A stretch of DNA of 64,000 nucleotides from a virus. Positions 2,864 through 63,968 of this stretch are shown here, one piece after another. Each line of letters starts with the position of its first letter. Position 1 is the first letter of the stretch. Made by a program: the position numbers and the translations under genes. The notes beneath the pieces are model-generated. The model ran no database searches. It saw only the letters and a program-made list of their open reading frames with translations, and was not told the origin of the DNA. The DNA lies in the IMG/VR virus record IMGVR_UViG_3300034012_002457, positions 4,542 to 68,541 of that record; one strand, given 5' to 3'.

Positions 2864-3360
2864 TGCCTACCGCCGTTCAGTTCCGCAGAGGAACCACCAC
2901 CCAGCATTCTAGTTTTACCGGCGCCCTTGGCGAGGTCACTGTTGACACTGACAAGGACGTTGTTGTTGTCCATGATGGCAGTCTTGCTGGCGGCTATCCA
3001 ATGGCCGGCACATCTATTGCCCAAACTTTTAGCAAGGCTCAACGTGGTGCAATCACTGCACTCACTGATGGTGCCACCATTACGCCTGATTTTTCTGCGG
3101 CGAATAATTTTAGTGTTACGCTTGGTGGTAATCGAACCTTAGCCAATCCCACAAATATTACCGCTGGCCAGAGCGGCATCATTGTAATTACGCAAGATGG
3201 CACAGGAAGTCGGACGCTGGCATTTGGCTCCAATTGGAAATTCCCAAACGGCACCGCTCCAACATTAACGACAACAGCAAGCAAGATTGACGTGTTGGCA
3301 TATTATTGCGAGTCTGCATCGAGAATTAGTGCTCAATTGCTGACGAACATGGGCGGTTAA
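2863..3360 (+). CDS. Tail fibre protein with Mtd-like N-terminal domain
   Basis: VQFRRGTT.QHSSFTGA.GEVTVDTDK.VVVHDG resembles the major tropism determinant N-terminal domain; C-terminal domain paralogous to the end of 63189..63968. Confidence 0.8.
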   Translation: MPTAVQFRRGTTTQHSSFTGALGEVTVDTDKDVVVVHDGSLAGGYPMAGTSIAQTFSKAQRGAITALTDGATITPDFSAANNFSVTLGGNRTLANPTNITAGQSGIIVITQDGTGSRTLAFGSNWKFPNGTAPTLTTTASKIDVLAYYCESASRISAQLLTNMGG

Positions 3361-3417
3361 GTCGATTTAATGCAATCAATGTTGTATGGTCAAGGGAGTA
3401 AAGCTTCATTCGCAGCC

Positions 3418-3612
3418 ATGTCTTTTTCCATTGACGATAAATGGTACGAGCAAAAAACTGAAATGCTTTCAGAGGCTCTTCAGGAGCTTCTTACGGACGG
3501 CGATGCAGCCAAAGCCAAGCAAGGGCTGATTGATGCCATTGCTTCGTGGACCAGCTATCACGAAGAAGAGCTGGCCAAATGGAACCGGCTTAAAGCTCTT
3601 CTGGGCCTTTGA
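3418..3612 (+). CDS. Hypothetical protein
   Basis: ORF; ATG at 3418 preferred over the upstream start at 3370. Confidence 0.6.
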   Translation: MSFSIDDKWYEQKTEMLSEALQELLTDGDAAKAKQGLIDAIASWTSYHEEELAKWNRLKALLGL

Positions 3613-3994
3613 GCTGATAGGTGATACGAAGCTCTCCTCCGAGAGCCTTCACAGCTTCGCTGGCATCCGCTGGCGGGGCTTTTTCAATCATGACGGACGG
3701 AACAATGGCATCAGACAAGGGTGTGACAATGGCATCAGGGAAAAGCTTTTTAGCTTGATCAGCTAAAGCATTGGCTTTTGTTTCTCTTTCTTCCTTTTCC
3801 CATTGTTTTACTAATACTGCCGCTTGTTCATCCACTTTTTCCATGACAATTTTGGTTTTCCACTCTGCCCAATCTGGCCGGCAGTAGGCCATGAGCATTT
3901 TGAACCATGGTTGAAAAGCAAGAGAGGGCCGTTTGGTAACGGCCCATAATCCTATTTCGTAGCACAGAGCATTAAACCAGCTTTGCCCGCTCAT
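3590..3994 (-). CDS. Hypothetical protein in lysis operon
   Basis: ORF coupled (4-bp overlap) to the endolysin stop. Confidence 0.6.
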   Translation of the reverse strand: MSGQSWFNALCYEIGLWAVTKRPSLAFQPWFKMLMAYCRPDWAEWKTKIVMEKVDEQAAVLVKQWEKEERETKANALADQAKKLFPDAIVTPLSDAIVPSVMIEKAPPADASEAVKALGGELRITYQLKGPEEL

Positions 3995-52518: not shown

Positions 52519-55500
52519 ATGGCAGCTCAAGACGCCGAACTGAAGCTTAAGGTAAGTCTTGACCTGGCGTTTTTTAGGCAACAACTAATAGGACTTGGCC
52601 AAGCTGCAGCGGGTTACAAAATTCCCGTGCAGGTTCAATTTGATAGGCGTAGTGTACAGAACGAACTTAATGCGCTAGGAAGAAATATTAGCCAAAGAAC
52701 ATATCGCCTTGAAGTTGCGACTAATTTAGCGGCAGAAATTAAAAATGCTGGCACCCTCGCGAAGGCATTGCGAGGACTAGATAATGCTGTTCAGAAAAAT
52801 AAGGGAATTGCTAATCGAACGGTTACTGGGCAAGCGGTTGGCACGGTAGACGCAAGCTCTTTTTCGGCAATGCTCAATAGAGCGACAAAGCCTGCGTTAG
52901 AGGCGCTGTACCAGGCAATGGCGAAGGCGAAAATTCCCATGGCCGATGTTGGGCGCGGAACCGTCAATGAATTAAGAACTTCAATAATTAGCGGCGTCCC
53001 CGCAATAACACGAGACATCGCCCAAGGATTGGCAAATGGTTTAGACCCCAAGCTCAAAGAAAATGGGCGCGAAGGCGCAAAGTCCTTTATTGATGCATTT
53101 AAGAGCGCAACTGGCATTGCATCGCCATCCAAAATATTTAAACAACTTGGCGAATTTAGTGCTGATGGCTTGGAAATTGGTTTCCTAAATGGCTTAAGAG
53201 AGTTCAAGGGCAAAGCTGTCGCTGAAATCAAGAAAATTGTTGCTCTAATGAAGTTGGAACTCGCTTCTGTGGGTGACGTGAATCTTAGGGCCGGAATAGG
53301 GGGCGCTCGGGGTAATGTTCGCGGTGGAGTTCAGTATATGGGGCCAATAGGGCCACTTCCTCTTGGCAGCGCACAGCCATGGGCACGTGGTGATCGAGGG
53401 ATGTATGGCGGTGGCGGATATGAGCCTTATATGGCTACGCAAGGTTTTGGAGCAGGTGGAAGAGGCGCTTCAAATGCCAGAAGTGTGTTTGCTTCTCCTT
53501 CTATGCTTGGCCTGGGTCAACTGGCATTACCGGCTGCAGGTCAAACTTCTGCCAGCATTTCTCAGCAAGCCCGTATTGCCCAGGCATATGCGCGATCTAG
53601 CGAGCGCGGTGCGTCTGTCTTTGGCGAAGATATTTATCGTCAAGGGCTAAGAACAGCAGCCGGACAAGTGCCAATGGGTGGCGGACGCTTCTTGCCTCCT
53701 GGCGGTGGTGGAGGTGGAGGACCGAGTGGGGGTGCGGGTGGTTTTGGTATGGGAGACTTTGGTCGTGCCATGGGAGGTATTAATCTTCCTGGCGCAGGGA
53801 CTATTCGCGAGCTTGGTAGTGAATTCGGCTTTGCTACTAAACAAGTTTTATTGTTTGGACAAGCTTATAAATTGTTAGGCTTTGCTCAAGATTTACCCTC
53901 CCAAGTTGGCAATGCCGTAAGTAAATTACAGAGCTTCAGAAATACTTTATCCTCTATAACTGGCAGCGCAAAAGAAGCTGGTCAAGCAAATCAATTTATC
54001 CTTGAAACCGTAGATAAATACAATATTCCATTGCAATCTGCTCGCGATGGTTTCACAAAGCTATTTGCTTCCATGGCACCCGCTGGATTTTCGGCAGGTG
54101 AAATTCAAGATTTATTTTTAAGCATAAGTAAAGCAGCGGCTACTTTTGGCATGAGTGCCGACAAAGTGGATCGCGTTAACTATGCTTTTGCTCAAATGGC
54201 TAGTAAGGGCCAGGTGATGAGCGAGGAACTAAAAGGACAATTAGGCGATGTGCTGCCTGGTGCTATGGGCATTTTCGCAGAAGCTGCTGGGTTTAAAGGT
54301 CCAGATGCTATTCAAAAATTTGGCAAAGCGTTGGAAGACGGCGCGTACAAAGGACAAGCGATGCGTGATTTGTTAAAAAATGTCACGATCGTAATGAATA
54401 AAGAGTTTGGTCCAGGCGCAGAAGGTGCTGCGAGAACTTTCCAAGGTGTTATCAACCGCATGCAAAATTCAACTCAGCTTTTTTATGAAAGCTTTGAGCC
54501 GGTTGCTGTGGGTTTTCTTAATAGTGTTGTTGTTCCCATTACAAGCGGCATCAAGACAATTACCGATGGTTTTACCGCCTTCCTTTCAGGCACTCAAGCG
54601 CAAACAGCGGGCGGCTCGGCATTCGCAGCGCAGTTAAAAGAATTAAAGCCAGCGTTTGATGGAATTCAGAGAAATATTCAATCTCTATTGCCCATTTTCT
54701 CTCAATTTGGTCAAATATTATTGCAAGTTAGTAAGTTCCTGATTCAAATTGCTGGCAATCCCGTTGTCGGATATTTAGCAAAACTTTACCTTGTTGCGCT
54801 TCCCATCAATTTAGTTTTTGGACGCATTGCTACAACCATTGGCTCGGTCTATGCCTCGATGACAACATTAAATGTTGGATTACTGGCAGGGGCTCAACGG
54901 TTCAAGACTGTTGACATGGTAATGAAAGGTTTTAATTTAACGGCTGGTCAAGCAACGGGTGTTTTAAGGGGTATTGCACCGGCGCTAAATGCTGTGACGC
55001 TTGGGCTAAGAGCTTTTGGCGCTACGGCAATTTTGGCTGGTATTTCATTGGTTATTGAGCGAATTATGTCCCTCAAGGGAGCTGTTGACAGCGTGCGCCA
55101 ATCCACGCAAATGATGCTTGCGAGTATTTCGTCAATGGCAAATAGTGGCGCAGTCCGAGAACTGAAAAATCTGGGCAAAGATATTGGAAAACAGGTTTCC
55201 ACTTTTGAAGGCTTGCGTCCTTTTGTTTCCGGCCAAGGTGGCAGAGGGCTTCCTGCTAAAAGATTGACGCCTCAAGCTGCCGCAACCATGGAGGAAATTG
55301 GGCTTGGAGGATTTGTCGGAAAAGATGTATTTGACAAACCATATGTCAAAGACTTTGTAAATGCTTCAAGAATTATTGAAGAACGACTCATATCTCTTCG
55401 TAAATCAGCAGCTTCTGTCAAGGAGAAACTGCCCTTGGCGGAACAAGCTGCTGCCGATCTGGCCAAGCAAACCAAAGCCCCAGAAATCACACCAATTACC

Positions 55501-56805
55501 AGTGATTCTGGAGATGGAAAAGGCAAAACAAAGCGAATTCCCTTTGAACAAATTGCTGATTATGAAAGTCAGCGTCAAGCAAAAATGGCGGCGTCCGATA
55601 AAGAACGTCGCTTAAGTGAACTAATTCGCGATGCGAGATTACAAGGGAATGAGGCGGAAGCTGAAAGCTTAGAGGCATTGCGCCCTGCCCTTGAGATTCG
55701 CGGAAAGATTGCAAGCCTAGAAGAATTTAGAAATATGCTGATTAACAAAGAAAATCAGATTGTTGGCAAATCATTAACACAGCAGCAGTTTAACAATAAA
55801 CTGCAAAATGCGAATGTCGAGCTATATGTATTACGCAACGAATTGCAGGAAACTTTTGACAAGCTTAAGGTGGATGAAGCAAAAAGGGCAAAAGATGAAT
55901 TAAAGGATCTTGACGACAAGATTAAAAAACAGCAAGAGTTTCAAAAACTTTTAAATGCCACTCAAATGGCTGCTGGGACAATGAGCCCAATTGAAATGGC
56001 TCGCGCTCAACAGCAGCAGCAGTTTGCTGATGACATGGCAAGGGCAAAAGAACTTGGTGCCAGTCAAGTGGAACTGGCTGATCTCGCCAAAGCTCAAGCC
56101 GCCATTCCTGCTGTCGGCTCATTGGAAGAGGCCATGAATAAACTTAAGGGGGAATTGAAAGATTTAACAAGTCTCAATGAAGTTGTTAAAAACTCTGCGA
56201 AAGGGATTGGGGAGGCATTCGGCAATTCTTTCAAAGAAATTGTCAATGGCTCAATGACTGCCCAAGAGGCATTGGCTTCTTTCTTCCAAAACATAGGAGA
56301 TTATTTCCTTGATATGGCGGCAAGGATGATTGCGAAATGGATGGAAATGCAAGTTATTGGCCTTGCACAAAATCTTTTATCCGCATTCTCCGGTGTCGGC
56401 GGAGGCGGGAGCAATGTCTTTGGCGGCGGTGCTCGGGGGCTCAGCACAACAGTTGGCTTTGGCACTGGTATTAGCGGTTTTGCCAATGGTGGTATTGCCG
56501 GGGGCGGCATTATTCCACTTAAAGCCTTTGCAGATGGCGGGACTGTGCAGGGGCCAACCCTTGGTCTTGTTGGTGAGGGGCGTTATAATGAAGCCATCGT
56601 ACCCCTCCCGGATGGACGCTCCATTCCGGTGGAATTACAGGGTTCTAATTCAGGCGATATAAACGTAATCGTAAATGTAGATGCGAAAAACACTCAAGTG
56701 TCTGGCGACGAAGGACAAGCAAGGGCTCTTGCAAGTGTTGTTAGTTCGGCAGTGCAAGCGGAACTCATCAAGCAAAAACGCCCTGGTGGACTCTTGAGGC
56801 AATAA
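52519..56805 (+). CDS. Tape measure protein
   Basis: 1428 aa, helical; IASPSK, QMASKGQVMSEELKGQLG, FADGG..GE...EAIVPL. Confidence 0.92.
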   Translation: MAAQDAELKLKVSLDLAFFRQQLIGLGQAAAGYKIPVQVQFDRRSVQNELNALGRNISQRTYRLEVATNLAAEIKNAGTLAKALRGLDNAVQKNKGIANRTVTGQAVGTVDASSFSAMLNRATKPALEALYQAMAKAKIPMADVGRGTVNELRTSIISGVPAITRDIAQGLANGLDPKLKENGREGAKSFIDAFKSATGIASPSKIFKQLGEFSADGLEIGFLNGLREFKGKAVAEIKKIVALMKLELASVGDVNLRAGIGGARGNVRGGVQYMGPIGPLPLGSAQPWARGDRGMYGGGGYEPYMATQGFGAGGRGASNARSVFASPSMLGLGQLALPAAGQTSASISQQARIAQAYARSSERGASVFGEDIYRQGLRTAAGQVPMGGGRFLPPGGGGGGGPSGGAGGFGMGDFGRAMGGINLPGAGTIRELGSEFGFATKQVLLFGQAYKLLGFAQDLPSQVGNAVSKLQSFRNTLSSITGSAKEAGQANQFILETVDKYNIPLQSARDGFTKLFASMAPAGFSAGEIQDLFLSISKAAATFGMSADKVDRVNYAFAQMASKGQVMSEELKGQLGDVLPGAMGIFAEAAGFKGPDAIQKFGKALEDGAYKGQAMRDLLKNVTIVMNKEFGPGAEGAARTFQGVINRMQNSTQLFYESFEPVAVGFLNSVVVPITSGIKTITDGFTAFLSGTQAQTAGGSAFAAQLKELKPAFDGIQRNIQSLLPIFSQFGQILLQVSKFLIQIAGNPVVGYLAKLYLVALPINLVFGRIATTIGSVYASMTTLNVGLLAGAQRFKTVDMVMKGFNLTAGQATGVLRGIAPALNAVTLGLRAFGATAILAGISLVIERIMSLKGAVDSVRQSTQMMLASISSMANSGAVRELKNLGKDIGKQVSTFEGLRPFVSGQGGRGLPAKRLTPQAAATMEEIGLGGFVGKDVFDKPYVKDFVNASRIIEERLISLRKSAASVKEKLPLAEQAAADLAKQTKAPEITPITSDSGDGKGKTKRIPFEQIADYESQRQAKMAASDKERRLSELIRDARLQGNEAEAESLEALRPALEIRGKIASLEEFRNMLINKENQIVGKSLTQQQFNNKLQNANVELYVLRNELQETFDKLKVDEAKRAKDELKDLDDKIKKQQEFQKLLNATQMAAGTMSPIEMARAQQQQQFADDMARAKELGASQVELADLAKAQAAIPAVGSLEEAMNKLKGELKDLTSLNEVVKNSAKGIGEAFGNSFKEIVNGSMTAQEALASFFQNIGDYFLDMAARMIAKWMEMQVIGLAQNLLSAFSGVGGGGSNVFGGGARGLSTTVGFGTGISGFANGGIAGGGIIPLKAFADGGTVQGPTLGLVGEGRYNEAIVPLPDGRSIPVELQGSNSGDINVIVNVDAKNTQVSGDEGQARALASVVSSAVQAELIKQKRPGGLLRQ

Positions 56806-56811
56806 CTAGTT

Positions 56812-57153
56812 ATGGCCACATTCCCTTCCATTGACCCTGCTTTTGACGCTCAAAAGCGCAGTAAGCCTCGCTTGCGGACTGTACAATTTGGCGATGGGTA
56901 TGAACAAAGACTTTCCTACGGAAACAATCAAAATCCCAAGGAATGGTCAGTTATGTTTATGGTTGACAACACTGATGCCGATACCATTGAAACCTTCCTA
57001 GATGCCCGTGGCGAAGATGGTCAATCCTTTGATTGGACGCCTCCCAATGAGGCTACGGCTTATAAATGGGTGTGTGATGAATGGAACAAGAGGATAGTGG
57101 GTGAAAATTTTAATGAAATTAGTGCTGTTTTTCGTCAAGTTTTTGAACCTTAA
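56812..57153 (+). CDS. Distal tail protein (lambda gpM-like)
   Basis: VQFGDGYEQR, FL......SFDWTPP, FRQVFEP. Confidence 0.88.
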   Translation: MATFPSIDPAFDAQKRSKPRLRTVQFGDGYEQRLSYGNNQNPKEWSVMFMVDNTDADTIETFLDARGEDGQSFDWTPPNEATAYKWVCDEWNKRIVGENFNEISAVFRQVFEP

Positions 57154-57156
57154 ATA

Positions 57157-58050
57157 ATGGCTTACGCTGCATGGAGTGCTAGCACCGCTTATGCTGTTGG
57201 CGACGTTGTTCGCGCCAGCAGTTTACAAGCTAGTGGCCTTGTCTTTTATTGCGCCATAGCTGGCACTTCGGCTGCTTCTCAGCCCGCTTGGCCCACTGAT
57301 ATTGGCAGCATCATTGTTGATGGAACAATAACTTGGAAGGCCTTTAGCAGTGTTTACGAGGAACTTGCAACAATAGCGCCCAGTGCCATTATTGAACTTT
57401 TTGAAATGACTTTAGATGGCAATTTACACGGAAGCACGGATACTTATCGTTGGCATAATGGCTGCAATGCTAATGTCACTGGAAATATTGTATGGAATGG
57501 CAATAGTTACATTCGCCTGCCCGTACAGGCCGAAGGTTTTGAATATAGTAATACCGGCATGTTGCCTCGTCCAACATTAACCATTAGCAATCTTGATGGC
57601 ACCATGACCACATTGCTATTATTGGTTAATGCCACCACGCCCGGCAATGATTTAGGGGGCGCTACAGTTAAGCGTATTCGCACATTAAGGAAATATCTTG
57701 ATGGTGAAGCCAATGCCGATCCTCATGCAAAATTTCCCGATGAAGTTTGGTATATAGATAGGAAGACAAACGAAAATCGTGATTCGGTGAGTTTTGAACT
57801 TGCTAGCAAATTTGACTTGGCTGGTGTCATGATTCCCAAGCGACAAATTATTGCAAATATTTGTCAATGGCAATATCGAAGCTCTGAATGTGGCTACACA
57901 GGAAGTGGTTACTGGGACGCAAATGATAGTGTCGTGGGGACGTTAGCGCAGGATAAATGCGGCAAGCGTCTTAGCTCCTGCAAGTTGCGTTTTGGTGAAA
58001 CTGCCGAGTTGCCCTTTGGGAGCTATCCAGGCGCTGGTCTTACGCAATGA
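57157..58050 (+). CDS. Minor tail protein (lambda gpL-like)
   Basis: RPTLTISN, C.WQYRS.ECGY...D.CGKRLSSCKLRF Fe-S motif. Confidence 0.9.
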   Translation: MAYAAWSASTAYAVGDVVRASSLQASGLVFYCAIAGTSAASQPAWPTDIGSIIVDGTITWKAFSSVYEELATIAPSAIIELFEMTLDGNLHGSTDTYRWHNGCNANVTGNIVWNGNSYIRLPVQAEGFEYSNTGMLPRPTLTISNLDGTMTTLLLLVNATTPGNDLGGATVKRIRTLRKYLDGEANADPHAKFPDEVWYIDRKTNENRDSVSFELASKFDLAGVMIPKRQIIANICQWQYRSSECGYTGSGYWDANDSVVGTLAQDKCGKRLSSCKLRFGETAELPFGSYPGAGLTQ

Positions 58051-58760
58051 AACTCAATAAATCCATCCAAGAGGCTGCACTGGAGCACGCCAAGGCGGAG
58101 TTCCCAAGGGAATCCTGCGGCTTGGTGGCCGTGGTCAAAGGTCGGAAGCGGTATTTCCCCTGCCGCAACATGGCGGAAACGCCAGACGAACATTTTGTAC
58201 TGGATCCTGCCGACTACGTTGCCGCCGAAGAGCAGGGCGAAATCGTGGCCGTGGTGCATAGCCACCCCAAAACCAACCACGCACCATCCCAAGCCGACCG
58301 CGTTGCCTGCGAGAAATCCGGCCTGCCCTGGCACATTGTCAATCCCCAAACCGAACAGTGGGGATATTGCGAACCCGAAGGCTTTGAGCTGCCGTATGTA
58401 GGACGTAGGTTTGTGTTTGGAATTGTAGATTGCTATACATTATGCCGCGATTGGTATAACCGCGAGTTTGGCTTAAATTTAAGAGACTACGATCGTCGTG
58501 ATAAGTTTTGGCTTAAAGGCGATAATTTGTATTTAGATAATTTTGCAAACGAGGGTTTTCGCTTGATTTCATTGGATGAATTGCAATATGGTGATGCAAT
58601 TTTAATGCAACTCGCGTCGCCCCTCCCGAATCATGCTGCCATTTACATGGGAGATCAAACAATTCTTCATCATCTACAGGGAAGATTAAGTAGTCGTGAC
58701 ATCTATGGTGGCTATTATTTAAAAAGCACTGCTAAGGTTTTGCGGCATGAAAGTCGTTAA
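58047..58760 (+). CDS. Tail assembly protein (lambda gpK-like; JAB + NlpC/P60)
   Basis: PRESCG, VHSHP...PSQAD; DCYTL...NHAAIY.G...ILHH. Confidence 0.9.
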   Translation: MKLNKSIQEAALEHAKAEFPRESCGLVAVVKGRKRYFPCRNMAETPDEHFVLDPADYVAAEEQGEIVAVVHSHPKTNHAPSQADRVACEKSGLPWHIVNPQTEQWGYCEPEGFELPYVGRRFVFGIVDCYTLCRDWYNREFGLNLRDYDRRDKFWLKGDNLYLDNFANEGFRLISLDELQYGDAILMQLASPLPNHAAIYMGDQTILHHLQGRLSSRDIYGGYYLKSTAKVLRHESR

Positions 58761-59418
58761 GGTTTATGGCGCTCTTCGTAAAAAACTAGGCAGGTGTCGT
58801 TTTCAGTTTGAAGCTGACACTCCGGCTCAGGCATTAAAGGCATTGTGTGTAAATTTCCCAGGTCTGGAGAAGTGGCTATTAGATAGTGAGAAAGATGGCG
58901 TTGGCTATCGTATTACTCTTGGGAAAGAAAAAATTACAGAAAATAATATAAGCATGATGGCTTTCCCCTGGAGCGAGCGTGAGGTTTTTAGTATCACTCC
59001 AGTTATCGCTGGTGCAGGCCAGGGCGGCGGCCAAATCTTGGCAGGCATCGGTCTTGTCGCACTGGCAATTGTCGCCGGTCCAGTTGCAGGCGGTTTCCTT
59101 GGTTTAGGTGCTGGCCTAAGCGGTGTTGGCGGAGGTATCGCAGCATCTGGTTTGATTGGTGGTGCAGCCGCATCTGCCTTGGGATTTGTCGGTTTGTCTC
59201 TTGCCATTGGTGGCGTCGCACAAGCACTTTCACCCGCCCCAGTTCAATCCACAACCACGACAGAACGCGGACGCGACGCTGCAAAGTTTGAATCTTTCAC
59301 CTTTTCTGGTATTGTCAACACCGCTAAGCAAGGATTGCCTGTACCAATTGCTTATGGACGTGTATTTGTTGGCTCTGCCGTTCTTTCTAGTGGTCTTGAT
59401 GTTGATCAATTGATATGA
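58747..59418 (+). CDS. Tail assembly protein (lambda gpI-like; ubiquitin-like fold)
   Basis: VKVYGAL, PVIAGAG, NT..QG.PVP.AYGR..VGS. Confidence 0.9.
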   Translation: MKVVKVYGALRKKLGRCRFQFEADTPAQALKALCVNFPGLEKWLLDSEKDGVGYRITLGKEKITENNISMMAFPWSEREVFSITPVIAGAGQGGGQILAGIGLVALAIVAGPVAGGFLGLGAGLSGVGGGIAASGLIGGAAASALGFVGLSLAIGGVAQALSPAPVQSTTTTERGRDAAKFESFTFSGIVNTAKQGLPVPIAYGRVFVGSAVLSSGLDVDQLI

Positions 59419-62400
59419 CACGCATTGTTGGCGCTGGTGGTGGTGGCGGAGGTGGATGCTTCCTGGGACATACGCTTGTTCGCGTTCCAGGTGGTGAGCA
59501 TCGTATTGATGAGCTACAGCCCGGCGATCTTGTCCTAAGTTTTGACCACACCGGCCAAGTCCACGAAGCCAAGATTCTCAAGGTTCATGAGCACAAAGGC
59601 GAGCGCGTCGTCCGTTATACGCTCTGGGGCGGGCAGCATCTTGATGCCACCCCCAACCACTGGGTGCTTAACCAGTTCAATGCCTTTGTCGAAATCGACA
59701 CACTCAGTTCTGATGATTGCCTTGTTGATGTCAACGGCCACCTGCGCCCCATCGTCAGCAAAACCGAAATCGGTACTGGCACAGTTTACAACCTGACAGT
59801 AGAAGGACATCACACCTTCATCGCCAACAACATCCGCGTCCACAACGCCGGCCTGGGTCTTGGTATTGCTGGCGCCGGCGGTGGGGGCGGTGGTGGTGGC
59901 AAAGGCGGCGGTGGTGGAGGATCTAGCCGCACCCCAACAGAAGCCGACGACTCACTGCAGTCAGTTCAATATGCCAGCGTGCTGGATCTGCTATGCGAAG
60001 GCGAAATTGACGGCATTGAAAACGGCGAAAAAGGCATTTACTTAGAAGGCACCCCAGTCCGCGACGCTGCCAACAATCCAAATTTTGAAGGCTATACAGT
60101 CGTCACCCGCACTGGCACGCAAGCCCAGAGCTACATCAGCAACGCGATTGGCACCGAAAGCGAAGAGAGCGTCAACGTCGAAGTTGTTAACGCCACTCCT
60201 GTTGTCCGTACCATCAGCGATTCCGACGTGGATCGTGTGCGCGTCACGCTTCAAGTTCCATCACTGCAAATCATCGAAGACGACGGCGACATTGTTGGTC
60301 ACAGCGTCCAAATTCAAATCCAAGTGCAATACAACGCCGGCGGCTACACAACCGTCGTAGATGACACGATCAGCGGCAAAACCAGCAATCGCTATCAGCG
60401 CGATTACATGATTCCGCTGTCTGGTGCGTTTCCAGTTGACATCAAAGTTGTCCGTGTCAGCGCCGATGAATCCAGCACCAAACGCCAAAACCTCACCTAC
60501 TGGTTCAGCTACACAGAAATTATCGACGAAAAACTGCGCTACCCAAATAGCGCACTCTGTTACCTGCGGTTTGATTCCCGCCAGTTCGACTCAATCCCAA
60601 CCCGTAAGTATCTGATTCGCGGGCAAAAAATCCAACTGCCCAGTAACGCCACCGTCGATACCACCACCTATCTAGGCCGCGTTACTTATGCCGGCGTCTG
60701 GGACGGCACTTTTGGCGCAGCAACTTGGTGTAACGATCCGGCTTGGTGTCTCTGGGACTTGCTCACGAACACCCGTTACGGCGCCAGCATTCCCACCAGC
60801 AGCCTGGATCGCTACGACTTCTATGCAATTTCCCAATATTGCAACGCCCTTGTTGACAACGGCAAAGGTGGCTTGGAACCCCGTTTCTCCTGCAACCTGC
60901 TAATTAACAGCCGCGACGAGGTTTATAACGTCATCCAAGAGATGACCAGCCTGTTCCGTGGCATCGCTTACTACGGCGCCGGCTCACTAGTGCTCCAGCA
61001 AGACAAGCCGACCGACTCGCAGTATTTGCTGGGACCAAGCAATGTCGTTGACGGCATTTTTGTTTATAGCGGCACATCACAAAAAGCACGCCATAGCGTT
61101 GCCACTGTTGCTTGGCAGTCTTACGACACCTTGGGTGAAGTTGAGTACGAATACATCGAAGATGCAGACGCTGTAGCCAAATACGGCATCATCAACAAAG
61201 ACATCAAAGCCCTCGGTTGTTACAGCCAAGGTCAAGCGCACCGCGCTGGTAAGTGGGCACTCCTTAGCGAACAAAACCTGACTGAAACAGTTACCTTCTC
61301 GGTGTCTATCGACAGCGGCATCATCTTGCGCCCTGCAATGGTGATTGACATTGCCGACCCGATGAAGGCTGGCACACGTCGCAGCGGGCGCATCAATTCT
61401 GCAACCACAACAGCAATAACTATCGACAACAACAGTCTGACCGTCAACGTATCTAGTAGCCCAACTATTTCGGTCTTGATGCCAACCGGCTTGGTTGAAA
61501 CACGCACCATTGTTAACATTTCAGGCCGCATTATCACAGTCAACAGCGCCTTCAGCGAAGCCCCCAACGCCAACGCAATCTGGCTCATCCAAACCAGCGA
61601 CATCGAAGCACAACAGTTTCGCGTTCTTAATGTTGCTGAATCGGAAGACGGCATCTACGGCGTCACCGCCCTGCAGTACAACAGCAGCATTTACAACGCG
61701 ATTGAAAGCGACAATACTCTGACCACCCGCGACATCAGTAACCTCAGCGATCCACCTGATCCGGTCAGCAGCATCAGCGGCACTGAATATCTCTATCAAG
61801 ACGGCCAAGGTGTATTTTCGGGCTTCAGCCTTAGCTGGATCAGCCCCAAGGAACGTGTTTCTGAGTTTCGCATCAAATACCGAATTGACAACGACAACTG
61901 GCAGCAAATCAATACGACATCACCATCAACAAAAATTCTTGATACACGCCCTGGAACGCTTTACATCCAAATCCAGGCATATAGCTATTTGAACAAAGGC
62001 AGTGCAATCGCCACCGCGCAATTCCCGCTTGTTGGCAAAACCGCCGTTCCCGGCAATGTCCAAAACCTCAGCTTTGAGGCCATCAATGCCAATTCAGGTC
62101 GTCTGCGCTGGGATGAAACCGTAGACCTCGATGTGAAGGTTGGCGGCAAAATCCACATCCGCCATAGCAACCTGACGGATGGTTCAGCTAGCTGGAGCAA
62201 CAGCGTCGATCTGATCCCCGCCAAATCCGGTAGCGCTACTGAGGCCATCATCCCGCTGGTGGAAGGCGAGGTGCTGGTCAAGTTTGAAGATGACGGAGGC
62301 CGCCAAAGCGCCAGCGAAACTAGCATCATCATCGACTTGCCCGACACGCTGGCACCACTCACGCTGATCAACCGGCGCGAAGACCAAGACGCCCCACCAT

Positions 62401-63164
62401 TCCAAGGCACCCGCACCAACACCTTCTACAGCGACGAATTTGACGCCCTGACACTGGATGGCTCAGAACTTCTGGATGACGTGCCTGATGTGGACGCTAT
62501 GGTGACATTTGACGTAATTGGGGATGTTCAAAGTTCTGGCACTTATAATTTCGCCAACACTGTTGATTTTGGCAACATATATTCCATTGACTTCAGTCGT
62601 TATTTTGTCACTCGTGGTTATTTCCCGAGTGATTTGGTTGATAGTCGTTTGGGGGAAGTAGACACTTGGAGCGATTGGGACGGCGGCGTGATTGACTCTG
62701 TAAACGCAGTGCTTGAACTTCGCAGCACCACTGACAATCCCAGTAGTAGTCCAACTTGGAGTGCTTGGCAACCCTTTGTTAATGGTACGTTCCGTGGCCG
62801 TGGTTTTCAATTCCGTACCACATTGACTAGTAGTGACATTGCAGAAAACATCCTCGTCGATGAGCTGGGCTACCTCGCCACCGTCCAACGCAGAACTGAG
62901 CAAAGCAACGCTGCGACCAGTGGCACCACTAACACGGCAATAACCTTTCCTTATCCATTCTTCACTGGAACTGCAAGTATTGGCGGACTCAATGCTTATC
63001 TGCCTAGTGTTGGCATTACTGCACAAAACATGCAGGCAGGAGATTATTTCCAAATTGGTAGCGTTACTGACAGCGGTTTTGTTATTAGCTTCTATGATTC
63101 CAGCGCCAATCCAATTACGCGACAATTTACGTGGAGCGCCACCGGATATGGTAAACGCGCTTAG
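59415..63164 (+). CDS. Central tail tip protein (lambda gpJ-like) with N-terminal Hint domain
   Basis: DLLCEGEIDG, LRYPNSA, NDPAWCLWDLLT..RYG, EPRFSCN, QAHRAGKW, FN3 repeats. Confidence 0.92.
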   Translation: MTRIVGAGGGGGGGCFLGHTLVRVPGGEHRIDELQPGDLVLSFDHTGQVHEAKILKVHEHKGERVVRYTLWGGQHLDATPNHWVLNQFNAFVEIDTLSSDDCLVDVNGHLRPIVSKTEIGTGTVYNLTVEGHHTFIANNIRVHNAGLGLGIAGAGGGGGGGGKGGGGGGSSRTPTEADDSLQSVQYASVLDLLCEGEIDGIENGEKGIYLEGTPVRDAANNPNFEGYTVVTRTGTQAQSYISNAIGTESEESVNVEVVNATPVVRTISDSDVDRVRVTLQVPSLQIIEDDGDIVGHSVQIQIQVQYNAGGYTTVVDDTISGKTSNRYQRDYMIPLSGAFPVDIKVVRVSADESSTKRQNLTYWFSYTEIIDEKLRYPNSALCYLRFDSRQFDSIPTRKYLIRGQKIQLPSNATVDTTTYLGRVTYAGVWDGTFGAATWCNDPAWCLWDLLTNTRYGASIPTSSLDRYDFYAISQYCNALVDNGKGGLEPRFSCNLLINSRDEVYNVIQEMTSLFRGIAYYGAGSLVLQQDKPTDSQYLLGPSNVVDGIFVYSGTSQKARHSVATVAWQSYDTLGEVEYEYIEDADAVAKYGIINKDIKALGCYSQGQAHRAGKWALLSEQNLTETVTFSVSIDSGIILRPAMVIDIADPMKAGTRRSGRINSATTTAITIDNNSLTVNVSSSPTISVLMPTGLVETRTIVNISGRIITVNSAFSEAPNANAIWLIQTSDIEAQQFRVLNVAESEDGIYGVTALQYNSSIYNAIESDNTLTTRDISNLSDPPDPVSSISGTEYLYQDGQGVFSGFSLSWISPKERVSEFRIKYRIDNDNWQQINTTSPSTKILDTRPGTLYIQIQAYSYLNKGSAIATAQFPLVGKTAVPGNVQNLSFEAINANSGRLRWDETVDLDVKVGGKIHIRHSNLTDGSASWSNSVDLIPAKSGSATEAIIPLVEGEVLVKFEDDGGRQSASETSIIIDLPDTLAPLTLINRREDQDAPPFQGTRTNTFYSDEFDALTLDGSELLDDVPDVDAMVTFDVIGDVQSSGTYNFANTVDFGNIYSIDFSRYFVTRGYFPSDLVDSRLGEVDTWSDWDGGVIDSVNAVLELRSTTDNPSSSPTWSAWQPFVNGTFRGRGFQFRTTLTSSDIAENILVDELGYLATVQRRTEQSNAATSGTTNTAITFPYPFFTGTASIGGLNAYLPSVGITAQNMQAGDYFQIGSVTDSGFVISFYDSSANPITRQFTWSATGYGKRA
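59457..59846 (+). other. Hint (intein-like) domain, 130 aa
   Basis: CFLGHTLV...IDELQPGDLV...ATPNHW...VYNLTVEGHHTFIANNIRVHN; +1 residue is Ala. Confidence 0.88.
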
Positions 63165-63188: not shown

Positions 63189-63968
63189 ATGCCTCCCCAA
63201 GCAGACTATGTAGTTAGCAATGGCACCGGCGCTAGCGTAAGAAGCGACATTAATAGTCAACTTGCAGCAATTGTTAGTAATAACAGCGGCGCCGTCGAGC
63301 CTTCCACCACTTATGCCTTTCAATGGTGGGCCGATACAACTACTGGCTTATTAAAAATTCGCAATGCCGCCAACTCAGCTTGGGTAACTGTTGGCACACT
63401 GGCCACCGCAAACCTTGGTCTATTGACCACCACCTCCGCTGCCAGCACCTATCTCGCCTTAGCGGGTGGCACCATTACCGGCACTCTTGAAATTGGTTCT
63501 GCTGGTTCGCTGGTGTTTGAGGGCAGCACCGCCGATGGCAACGAAACCACGCTGGCGGTTACGGACCCCACCGGCGACCGCACGATCACCTTGCCAGATG
63601 CCACTGGGACTGTGCCTCTGTTAGGCTTGGCGCAGAGTTTTACTGCGGCTCAACGTGGTAGCATTACAGCGCTGACTTCGGCCAGTACGATCACTCCTGA
63701 TTTTGCTTTGGCTAACAACTTCAGTCTGACCTTGGGGCATAACGCCACGCTGGCGAACCCCACCAACCTGACCGCCGGCCAAAGCGGCGTGATCTTCATC
63801 ACGCAAGACGCCAGCACCGCCTACACCCTGGCCTTTGGCAGCTACTGGGACTTCAGCGGCGGCACCGCCCCGACTGTCACGAGCACGCTGTCGGCGGTGG
63901 ACTGCTTGGTCTACGCGGTCCGCAGCAGCACCAGCATCCACGCCCAACTGATCACGAACCTGAGCTGA
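63189..63968 (+). CDS. Tail fibre protein
   Basis: VRSDIN..L.AI, WADTT..LLKIRN, FEG.TAD..ETTL..TDPT.DRTITLP; C-terminus paralogous to 2863..3360. Confidence 0.85.
   Translation: MPPQADYVVSNGTGASVRSDINSQLAAIVSNNSGAVEPSTTYAFQWWADTTTGLLKIRNAANSAWVTVGTLATANLGLLTTTSAASTYLALAGGTITGTLEIGSAGSLVFEGSTADGNETTLAVTDPTGDRTITLPDATGTVPLLGLAQSFTAAQRGSITALTSASTITPDFALANNFSLTLGHNATLANPTNLTAGQSGVIFITQDASTAYTLAFGSYWDFSGGTAPTVTSTLSAVDCLVYAVRSSTSIHAQLITNLS

Follow-up and report, generated by a model that had tools for sequence, protein, structure and literature searches.

What is an intein-like domain doing at the very start of a phage tail fibre protein? The locus that raises this question lies in a 64,000-nucleotide (nt) stretch of viral DNA, hereafter the window, which comprises bases 4542-68541 of the 68,541-bp IMG/VR record IMGVR_UViG_3300034012_002457, a record with direct terminal repeats. 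Its gene for the central tail fibre protein gpJ encodes a glycine-rich leader, a Hint domain and a second copy of the leader motif, reading MTRIVGAGGGGGGG, then CFLGH...IRVHN, then AGLGLGIAGAGGGGGGGGKGGGGGGSSRTPTEADD. We consider it fairly probable that this Hint is an intein-like, recurrently gained and lost element that resembles type A bacterial intein-like (BIL) domains and removes itself from gpJ by cleavage or amine-mediated splicing. The argument builds on the following features.

59415..63164, plus strand: gpJ-like central tail fibre/tip attachment protein with N-terminal Hint, 1249 aa
59415..59456, plus strand: leader (N-extein) MTRIVGAGGGGGGG, 14 residues, a hydrophobic-x-G-[AS]-G motif followed by oligo-Gly, with Gly at position -1
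59424..59455, plus strand: direct repeat copy 1, 32 nt (reference copy), encoding IVGAGGGGGGG
59457..59846, plus strand: mini-Hint/A-type-BIL-like domain, aa 15-144, 130 residues, with Cys15, T79-x-x-H82 and H143-N144
59457-59459: Cys15
59841-59846: His143-Asn144
59847-59849: Ala145 (+1)
59847..59900, plus strand: C-flank with the +1 Ala145, the linker AGLGLG and the second leader-motif copy IAGAGGGGGGGG
59865..59896, plus strand: direct repeat copy 2, 32 nt, 84% identical to copy 1 and 441 nt downstream of it, encoding IAGAGGGGGGG
59901..59903, plus strand: Lys163, within the oligo-Gly tract GGGGKGGGG
59922..63164, plus strand: conserved gpJ body, starting SSRTPTEADDSLQS and aligning from lambda gpJ residues HTPREAKDNLKS onward

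Four Hint-clan Pfam profiles matched the domain (Intein_splicing 4.4e-7, Hint 1.4e-6, PT-HINT 2.7e-4 and Hint_2 1.3e-3), each below its curated gathering threshold (30.3 versus 35.8, 28.5 versus 29.7, 21.6 versus 27.7 and 19.5 versus 28.4 bits, respectively). AlphaFold2, run on a 16-sequence alignment, modelled aa 12-145 at a predicted local distance difference test (pLDDT) value above 93 and left the leader and residues 146-174 disordered. A profile search of the PDB, conducted with no BIL-specific profile, ranked a Clostridium thermocellum BIL (2LWY, 2e-14) above the gp41-1 intein (1.5e-11) and a Tetrahymena BIL2 (8e-11). Foldseek ordered the matches as BIL2 of the Tetrahymena thermophila BUBL1 locus (PDB 6Y75/6TMM; 3.6e-11, target TM-score 0.80), the Ssp DnaB intein, 2LWY (target TM-score 0.87) and gp41-1, with E values from 4e-11 to 9e-10; 65 PDB chains reached E≤1e-3, and those listed were BIL, intein and Hedgehog domains. 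On the basis of the predicted fold, the first Hint residue Cys1 (Cys15 of gpJ) and the block B Thr-x-x-His motif, we confidently assign the insert to the HINT superfamily. Its 130 residues leave no room for an endonuclease, and neither a homing endonuclease nor a nearby homing gene or other mobility device was found. In the available passages of two studies (PMC4031507 and PMC7765530), type A BILs are defined by a His-Asn end and a non-nucleophilic +1 residue. Because gpJ has the His-Asn pair and Ala at +1, we class its Hint as type-A-BIL-like rather than as a canonical intein. A first-pass annotation made from the letters of the window had already described this domain with its duplicated flanking motif, its +1 Ala and its lack of an endonuclease; the sequence proved to be exactly as described, and the fold prediction is confident. 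It had further held that BILs lacking a +1 nucleophile mostly cleave, with which the literature passages covered agree, adding that type A BILs also splice through the freed alpha-amine.

The architecture extends far beyond this window. With gpJ residues 1-170 as query and 8000 candidates scored, 703 proteins matched at E≤1e-3, and the best 120 of them are 65-90% identical and all carry gpJ domains. Among 1.84 billion cluster representatives, 4977 matched at E≤1e-3, 426 at ≤1e-10 and 74 at ≤1e-30; many of the best 150 have 1200-3400 residues, with the Hint placed after a leader of ~5-25 residues and followed within ~20-40 residues by the gpJ signature GGKGGG...E-x-P-D-S-L. At least 590 IMG/VR stretches encode a Hint relative. 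No Hint on gpJ was found among 50,697 isolated phage records, of which 1734 contain gpJ-body homologues. The 25 records returned there by tblastn with aa 1-170 all showed less than 32% identity and were not tied to gpJ (the genes concerned encode terminase, helicase, gyrase, methyltransferase and hypothetical proteins), the best Hint match being a 565-aa hypothetical protein amid unannotated genes of a Ruminococcus phage. A set of 185,579 genomes, one per species, yielded 40 matched loci, with ten at ≥45% identity that lie mostly on contigs of metagenome-assembled genomes (MAGs); a 704-kb Castellaniella contig and an Oxalobacter contig are among those listed with a relative. Hint-bearing gpJ is, as a new finding, widespread in uncultivated phages. 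No phage whose central tail fibre carries a Hint or BIL was found described in the literature searched, with subscription papers and supplements lying outside its scope; inteins of phage phiCbK are located in terminase and reductase according to the passages covered.

Conservation across the family centers on both junctions. The 150 representative clusters yielded 220 complete domains, all of which have Cys1 (220/220) and likewise the terminal His-Asn (220/220); Gly occupies position -1 in 187. The +1 residue is Lys in 123, Gly in 79, Ala in ten, Arg in three, Ser in two and Gln, Leu and Val in one each, but never Cys or Thr; in the 120 closest homologues, it is Ala in 121 of 121 domains. Sixteen diverse sequences share G-1, C1, F2, T79, H82, R141, V142, H143, N144 and G+2 without change. 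A set of 81 distinct close Hints, for which the search pattern required Cys1 and Val-His-Asn, keeps seven further positions that the pattern did not require (T79, H82, N86, V124, N126, T134 and R141) in 81/81. Over 170 pairs of these 81 Hints, the ratio of nonsynonymous to synonymous substitution rates (dN/dS) is 0.10, compared to 0.18-0.22 for the adjacent 130 codons of the gpJ body, indicating strong purifying selection on the domain. The two loci with Ser at +1 (L131 and L140, matched near 3351-3896) read RVHN followed by SGLGDG; judged from these residues, they could be capable of canonical splicing and serve as natural controls for the role of the +1 position.

Despite this conservation, the Hint is dispensable to the phage. 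The 90% cluster of the window protein includes five Hint-less members of 1108 aa that read MTRILGAGGGGGGGGGGKGGGG...SSRTPTEADD. Judged by the gpJ body, the 80 nearest IMG/VR loci were sampled (320 residues compared, 78-97% identity). The Hint is present in 58 and missing from 19 with an intact gpJ, and four were left unscored (among them L167 and L168, earlier read as Hint-bearing), giving 77 scored loci. On a tree of 930 nt of the gpJ body, Hint excluded, the allele distribution needs 11 changes of Hint state, at least seven of which are forced by well-supported branches, as counts that do not separate gain, loss and recombination. Two loci of opposite state, L163 without and L016 with the Hint, are identical across these 930 nt. 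Both alleles also occur in a single run. Lake-water metagenome runs hold sequence near-identical to the window, and in run X6 one contig matches 59270-59800 with 0 differences while another joins 59449 to 59904 via 25 nt of Gly/Lys codons, with 136 letters on the shorter side of the joint; where one side of a joint spanned just 21-23 letters, the joint was disregarded, since Gly-codon repeats of other organisms probably account for it. Chimeric joins within such repeats are a risk in metagenomic contigs, yet the Hint-less form appears in 19 separate contigs as well as in the five 1108-aa members. The domain is an optional insert at one conserved site. This bears on the suggestion of the first-pass annotation that the Hint generates the mature gpJ N-terminus. 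Trivially it holds, in that a Hint that is present must leave, but the intact Hint-less alleles (19/77) in near-identical phages and the coexistence of both alleles in run X6 mean that the domain is not needed for this purpose. The survey of gpJ homologues that the annotation had proposed thereby contradicts a need for the Hint, and an obligatory maturation role is not supported.

Alleles with more or less than one domain exist as well. Tandem two-Hint forms (P0002, P0154, P0166 and P0225) contain copies that are 53-79% identical. Another protein, P0130 (1165 aa, from one 4.5-kb contig), has an in-frame internal deletion that joins the first ~56 Hint residues (Cys15 to ~residue 70) to the Gly/Lys tract, which points to decay of the copy or, alternatively, to misassembly across Gly-codon repeats.

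How the domain could come and go is suggested by its flanks. Hint and linker lie between the two 32-nt direct repeats, and Hint-less DNA contains a single copy of the repeat. Most family members have the leader motif again downstream of the Hint, separated from it by a short linker (AGLGLG, GGHRERYP and similar); L106 and L116, for example, carry IQGASTGGG on either side, and L113 and L118 carry ISGSGGG. Across 43 representative proteins, the seven residues before Cys1 match the C-flank of the same protein at 5.14 of 7 positions, compared to a mean of 4.33 and a maximum of 4.77 in 2000 shuffled pairings; because the own-protein value exceeds every shuffle, the duplication is not due to chance. 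Clean insertions without a second motif also occur, in the form IIGSGG-Hint-GGGGKGGG (L083-L087, P0196 and others). The leader is the same in Hint-less alleles of close relatives, and Hint-less gpJ proteins of isolated phages with ~43% identity have the same leader type, as in Halomonas phage H4907 (MSAAEWIEGAGGGGKGGGG), Acinetobacter phage Silvergun (MSQLIQIEGAGGGG) and Ralstonia phage Dina (MRNIIGYGGGKGG). Hint-less gpJ proteins possess the leader motif in their own right, and the idea that it represents a scar of Hint loss was ruled out by these isolated phages. Downstream of the insert, the Lys163 column is unchanged in 11/11 aligned sequences, with counterparts in Hint-less alleles, in lambda gpJ (MGKGSSKG) and after each Hint of the tandem forms.

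According to available passages of PMC4031507, type A BILs can splice when the freed alpha-amine attacks the thioester at the N-terminal junction, with cleavage dominating. A corresponding route for gpJ would start after translation with a shift of the Gly14-Cys15 bond to a thioester, and cyclization of Asn144 would sever the bond between His-Asn and Ala145. The Hint would then exit by plain N- and C-terminal cleavage or, as in type A BIL splicing, through attack of the freed Ala145 alpha-amine on the thioester. Either route would leave gpJ with a Gly-rich N-terminus bearing IxGAGGGG...K, like the Hint-less alleles: following Asn cyclization, the protein would start AGLGLGIAGAGGGGGGGGK..., resembling the Hint-less start TRILGAGGGGGGGGGGK..., and the cleaved product of clean-insertion variants would begin GGGGKGGG. 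Selection may maintain the Hint chemistry because tail-tip assembly would probably suffer if each chain of the gpJ trimer kept its 15-kDa domain. The population behaviour is intein-like, with an optional element at one conserved site, repeated gain and loss in near-identical phages and occasional tandem copies. These data fit a Hint whose flanking repeats allow repeated gain, loss or reshuffling while selection holds it to self-removal.

Several observations weigh against this interpretation. The proposed chemistry is read from conserved residues. Since no homing endonuclease or mobility device was found, gain of the domain cannot be told from recombination that reshuffles gpJ N-termini. Hint identity exceeds that of the gpJ body in 53 diverse proteins (mean 49.8% versus 39.9%) and tracks it at r = 0.66, and the Hint is retained in 58 of the 77 scored close relatives; a useful module would give the same pattern of retention, conservation and co-divergence. 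In some protein pairs, the Hints are far more alike than the bodies (for example, 82% versus 43%), and from co-divergence and such exceptions we conclude that inheritance is mostly vertical with some exchange or body mosaicism. If the P0130 contig is real, an N-terminal extension may be tolerated, and the proposed block to assembly is deduced from the published architecture of the lambda tip. Finally, C-terminal cleavage alone leaves the invariance of Cys1 and block B unexplained, so the thioester may serve for more than getting rid of the domain. Because these residues are invariant although the leader is of throw-away size, we retain both amine-mediated splicing and transfer of the thioester to another amine as options.

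The neighbouring genes are relevant to the latter option. The locus is a lambda-like tail-tip module in which gpJ follows gpL, gpK and gpI.

52519-56805: tape measure gene, first in module order
56812-57153: gpM, after the tape measure gene
57157-58050: gpL, after gpM
58047..58760, plus strand: gpK-like tail assembly protein with a JAB/JAMM peptidase (aa 5-99) and an NlpC/P60 peptidase (aa 119-233)
58747..59418, plus strand: gpI-like tail assembly protein, its stop codon overlapping the gpJ start (ATGA)
58999..59019, plus strand: end of the gpI ubiquitin-like domain, PVIAGAG (P85-G91)

The gpJ product itself matches FNIII-A_GpJ (1.4e-40) and Phage-tail_3 (4.4e-11) in Pfam, and its aa 162-976 correspond to phrog_31 ('central tail fiber J') at 1.3e-232. 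For gpK, matches were obtained to Prok-JAB (9.1e-17), NLPC_P60 (8.7e-15) and phrog_30 (1.4e-117). Residues E22, H71, S72, H73, S81, D84 and C129 are unchanged in 26/26 homologues, and we take all of these but C129 to be the JAMM metal-binding and catalytic set. The gpI protein, alignable with lambda gpI and matching phrog_32 ('tail assembly protein', 3.9e-46) over its full length, consists of a ubiquitin-like (Ubl) beta-grasp domain (aa 1-~91), Gly-rich hydrophobic helices and a C-terminal plug-like domain. AlphaFold2 modelled its aa 1-88 at pLDDT 85-93, and the top 20 PDB matches listed are MoaD, SAMP1, CysO, Urm1 and related beta-grasp proteins, at weak scores (E≥3.7e-3). The Ubl-like gpI and JAB-bearing gpK named as neighbours in the first-pass annotation were recovered in this way, gpI through these weak matches. 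A translational gpI-gpJ fusion was considered and set aside: the genes overlap in ATGA with gpJ in the -1 frame, and nothing seen favours frameshifting.

The last strand of the gpI Ubl domain closes with ITPVIAGAG, of which P85 and G89 are unchanged in 26/26 homologues; the lambda counterpart is VPRVAGAKSGG (aa 91-101). Hence, a hydrophobic-x-G-[AS]-[GK] form is common to the gpJ leader and the gpI Ubl end (PVIAGAG here, VAGAK in lambda). When leaders of five isolated phages (including L276, L278 and L280) were compared to their gpI tails, IEGAG was present in both proteins of Halomonas phage H4907 (L276). A shuffle test on 57 distinct triples of gpI tail, leader and post-Hint motif gave an excess of only 0.2-0.26 of 4 positions, and because this excess is small and confounded by relatedness, we claim a shared motif form and not co-evolution. 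The similarity suggests that the gpJ N-terminus and the gpI tail may be handled by one factor, possibly the gpK JAB peptidase.

Further observations concern the module as such. The open reading frame (ORF) after gpJ (63189-63968, 259 aa) has no Pfam match, and its PHROG matches are of unknown function or 'tail protein' (best 1.4e-22); it probably encodes a side-fibre or fibre-associated protein. Five loci (L083, L084, L087, L088 and L150) contain two tandem gpI paralogues upstream of a Hint-bearing gpJ, each with a Ubl domain and tail motif. In Ralstonia phage Dina (L280), an annotated toxin/HicB-like antitoxin pair at locus positions 210-799 is encoded on the opposite strand, flanked by a tail gene and the gpJ homologue, in the place that gpI takes in the other modules. 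The closest matches in the one-genome-per-species set are two short MAG contigs labelled Pseudomonadales and Cyanobacteria; since binning of phage contigs is unreliable, we name no host.

Other explanations assign the Hint a different fate. It may have been co-opted for ligation, much as in the second proposal of the first-pass annotation, passing a thioester formed on the leader Gly to an amine other than the +1 alpha-amine. Candidate acceptors are Lys163 (in an isopeptide bond, as for BUBL BIL2) and partners within the tail tip, for instance gpI or the tape measure protein. Structurally, the gpJ Hint is matched best by BUBL1 BIL2, for which the available text from the providers of the structure describes ATP-independent isopeptide formation between a Ubl C-terminus and Lys. 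In the same direction point the invariance of Cys1 and block B next to a leader of only ~5-25 residues, the Lys in flexible Gly context after each Hint (GGGGK in tandem forms, +1 Lys in 123 of 220 domains) and the leader itself, which has the form of the gpI Ubl tail, with IEGAG in both proteins of H4907. This is countered by the short peptide, rather than Ubl domain, that forms the N-extein, by the presence of the Lys in lambda gpJ, which has neither leader nor Hint, and by the common intact Hint-less alleles that share leader and Lys, from which it follows that no ligation product is essential. As BIL2 performs such chemistry, we keep ligation as a minority reading that is unlikely but worth stating. 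An extended version, to which we give still less credit, holds that the leader and its post-Hint copy mimic the gpI Ubl tail, that the Hint passes the Gly thioester to Lys or a tip partner without ATP or E1 and that JAB processes or deconjugates the product; if it were true, the tail-tip module would contain its own, self-sufficient cycle of ubiquitin-like conjugation, in which the Hint would serve as an optional activating enzyme. Alternatively, the Hint could be a passenger in a propeptide: gpK JAB would cut after hydrophobic-x-G-A-G in both gpI and gpJ, and the post-Hint cut would remove leader and Hint together, gpJ being rescued by the duplicated motif rather than by Hint chemistry. The gpI Ubl end, the gpJ leader and the post-Hint segment do share a single motif form, the match of gpI tail and post-Hint motif (2.40 of 4 in the same phage versus 2.14 when shuffled) was reached by 2/5000 shuffles and the JAB catalytic residues are invariant. 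Moreover, Iyer et al. (2006, PMC1779556) predict, in the passages covered, a JAB cut at the conserved gpI Gly, and lambda gpI is reported in the available text to be resolved in virions only from residue 101, just past VAGAKSGG. Yet variants of the IIGSGG-Hint-GGGGKGGG type would not be rescued, invariant catalytic residues and a dN/dS of 0.10 are unexpected for a passive passenger, the motif covariation is small (0.2-0.26 of 4) and confounded by relatedness and a demonstration of JAB cleavage of gpI or gpJ was not found in the literature passages covered. A complex prediction for gpK JAB (aa 1-115) with gpJ aa 1-185 scored 0.05 against a mark of 0.32 and speaks neither for nor against binding. 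We rate the passenger scenario a little below ligation to another amine and as doubtful.

The two remaining explanations keep the domain silent or make it an ordinary intein. A Hint silent in vivo that stays on the virion as a decoration or assembly domain of gpJ would explain why it is well folded, under purifying selection and largely co-divergent with the gpJ body (r = 0.66), and the in-frame remnant in the P0130 contig is in line with it. Against retention, the exceptionless residues are the catalytic ones at both junctions (Cys1 and His-Asn, 220/220 each), the domain is optional among near-identical phages and three 15-kDa domains would probably have little room; we regard this as very improbable. 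A class 1 mini-intein with canonical splicing accords with the intein-like blocks A, B, F and G, the close structural matches to the gp41-1 and DnaB mini-inteins, the conserved site with empty alleles and the Ser at +1 in two loci. As canonical splicing requires a +1 nucleophile (PMC4031507, passages covered), it is hard to reconcile with +1 Ala in 121/121 domains of the 120 closest homologues and with +1 Ser in only 2/220 domains, never Cys or Thr, and we hardly credit it for the family.

Among characterized systems, type A BILs such as the C. thermocellum domain of 2LWY share with the gpJ Hint Cys1, the C-terminal His-Asn, the lack of a +1 nucleophile, tandem copies and, as deduced from these residues, the expected chemistry of cleavage with minor amine-mediated splicing. 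Described BILs reside in hypervariable regions of non-conserved bacterial proteins (PMC7765530, available passages), whereas the gpJ Hint occupies one fixed site at the far N-terminus of a phage virion protein, within its oligo-Gly leader; empty alleles occur in its population, and the leader motif around it is duplicated. The horseshoe Hint fold, blocks A, B, F and G, optional insertion at a conserved site of an essential gene and purifying selection are shared with mini-inteins (gp41-1, Ssp and Npu DnaB and Mtu RecA). In contrast to these, the gpJ Hint has Ala, Gly or Lys at +1 instead of Cys, Ser or Thr, an N-extein of only ~5-25 residues and no endonuclease or nearby homing gene seen, and because it is flanked by direct repeats, its loss leaves exactly one repeat copy. 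Like BUBL1 BIL2, it directly follows a Gly-ended, ubiquitin-type tail and has a Lys downstream. In BUBL, however, the N-extein is a whole Ubl domain and the product an isopeptide conjugate, as stated in the passages covered, whereas gpJ offers a 14-residue leader resembling the tail of a Ubl domain in the separate gpI. Conjugation of a Ubl to the central tail fibre has been described for the Bil defence system in the text available, which names no site; an interplay of the Hint with such Ubl-conjugating defences, as raised in the first-pass annotation, may exist. The lambda L-K-I-J region has the same gene order and families, a homologous gpJ body and a similar gpI tail motif (VAGAK versus IAGAG here), but lambda gpJ begins MGKGSSKG and lacks both the hydrophobic-x-G-A-G leader and the Hint. 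According to the portions of the literature covered, gpI is sometimes fused to gpJ (Iyer et al. 2006, PMC1779556), the lumen of the lambda tip holds three gpI copies resolved from residue 101 in one study and 135 in another, the N-terminal gpI domain is not visible, mass spectrometry detects no gpK in virions and lambda gpL and gpI, together with the N-terminal part of gpJ, are equated with a single T5 hub protein.

Related Hints also occur in two other protein contexts. Members of a second family (P0159, P0163, P0180, P0181, P0183, P0187, P0204, P0205 and others), mostly of 400-1100 residues, contain closely related Hints and, judging by their signal-peptide-like start, look secreted. This start runs to ARGGGG directly before CF and is followed by two to five abutting Hints, joined as HN-KGG(G)-CF, and a Gly-rich stretch; some members additionally have a hydrophobic segment and a Tim44-like domain (PF04280, 1.6e-10 to 1.3e-25). 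No description of such a secreted-looking multi-Hint family was found in the literature searched. Proteins of the third context (P0219, P0247, P0249, P0254, P0255, P0260, P0266, P0282 and P0286; ~1080-1290 residues) contain two Hints near the C-terminus, the first with a terminal His-Asn and the second, at the very end of the protein, without it.

If the gpJ Hint is indeed a self-removing insert, these phages harbour a large natural family of intein-like elements in a structural gene that lack a +1 nucleophile and are strongly selected. Hundreds of natural alleles with zero, one or two Hint copies at one site would then provide a comparison set for splicing and cleavage that use no side-chain nucleophile. 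They would also allow one to ask how Hint elements lacking an endonuclease are maintained in virus populations, and they would supply new small domains, with Gly at -1 and Gly or Ala at +1, for self-cleavage or ligation. The motif shared by the gpI tail and the gpJ leader, in turn, makes the long-unexplained role of JAB in the assembly of lambda-like tails directly testable.

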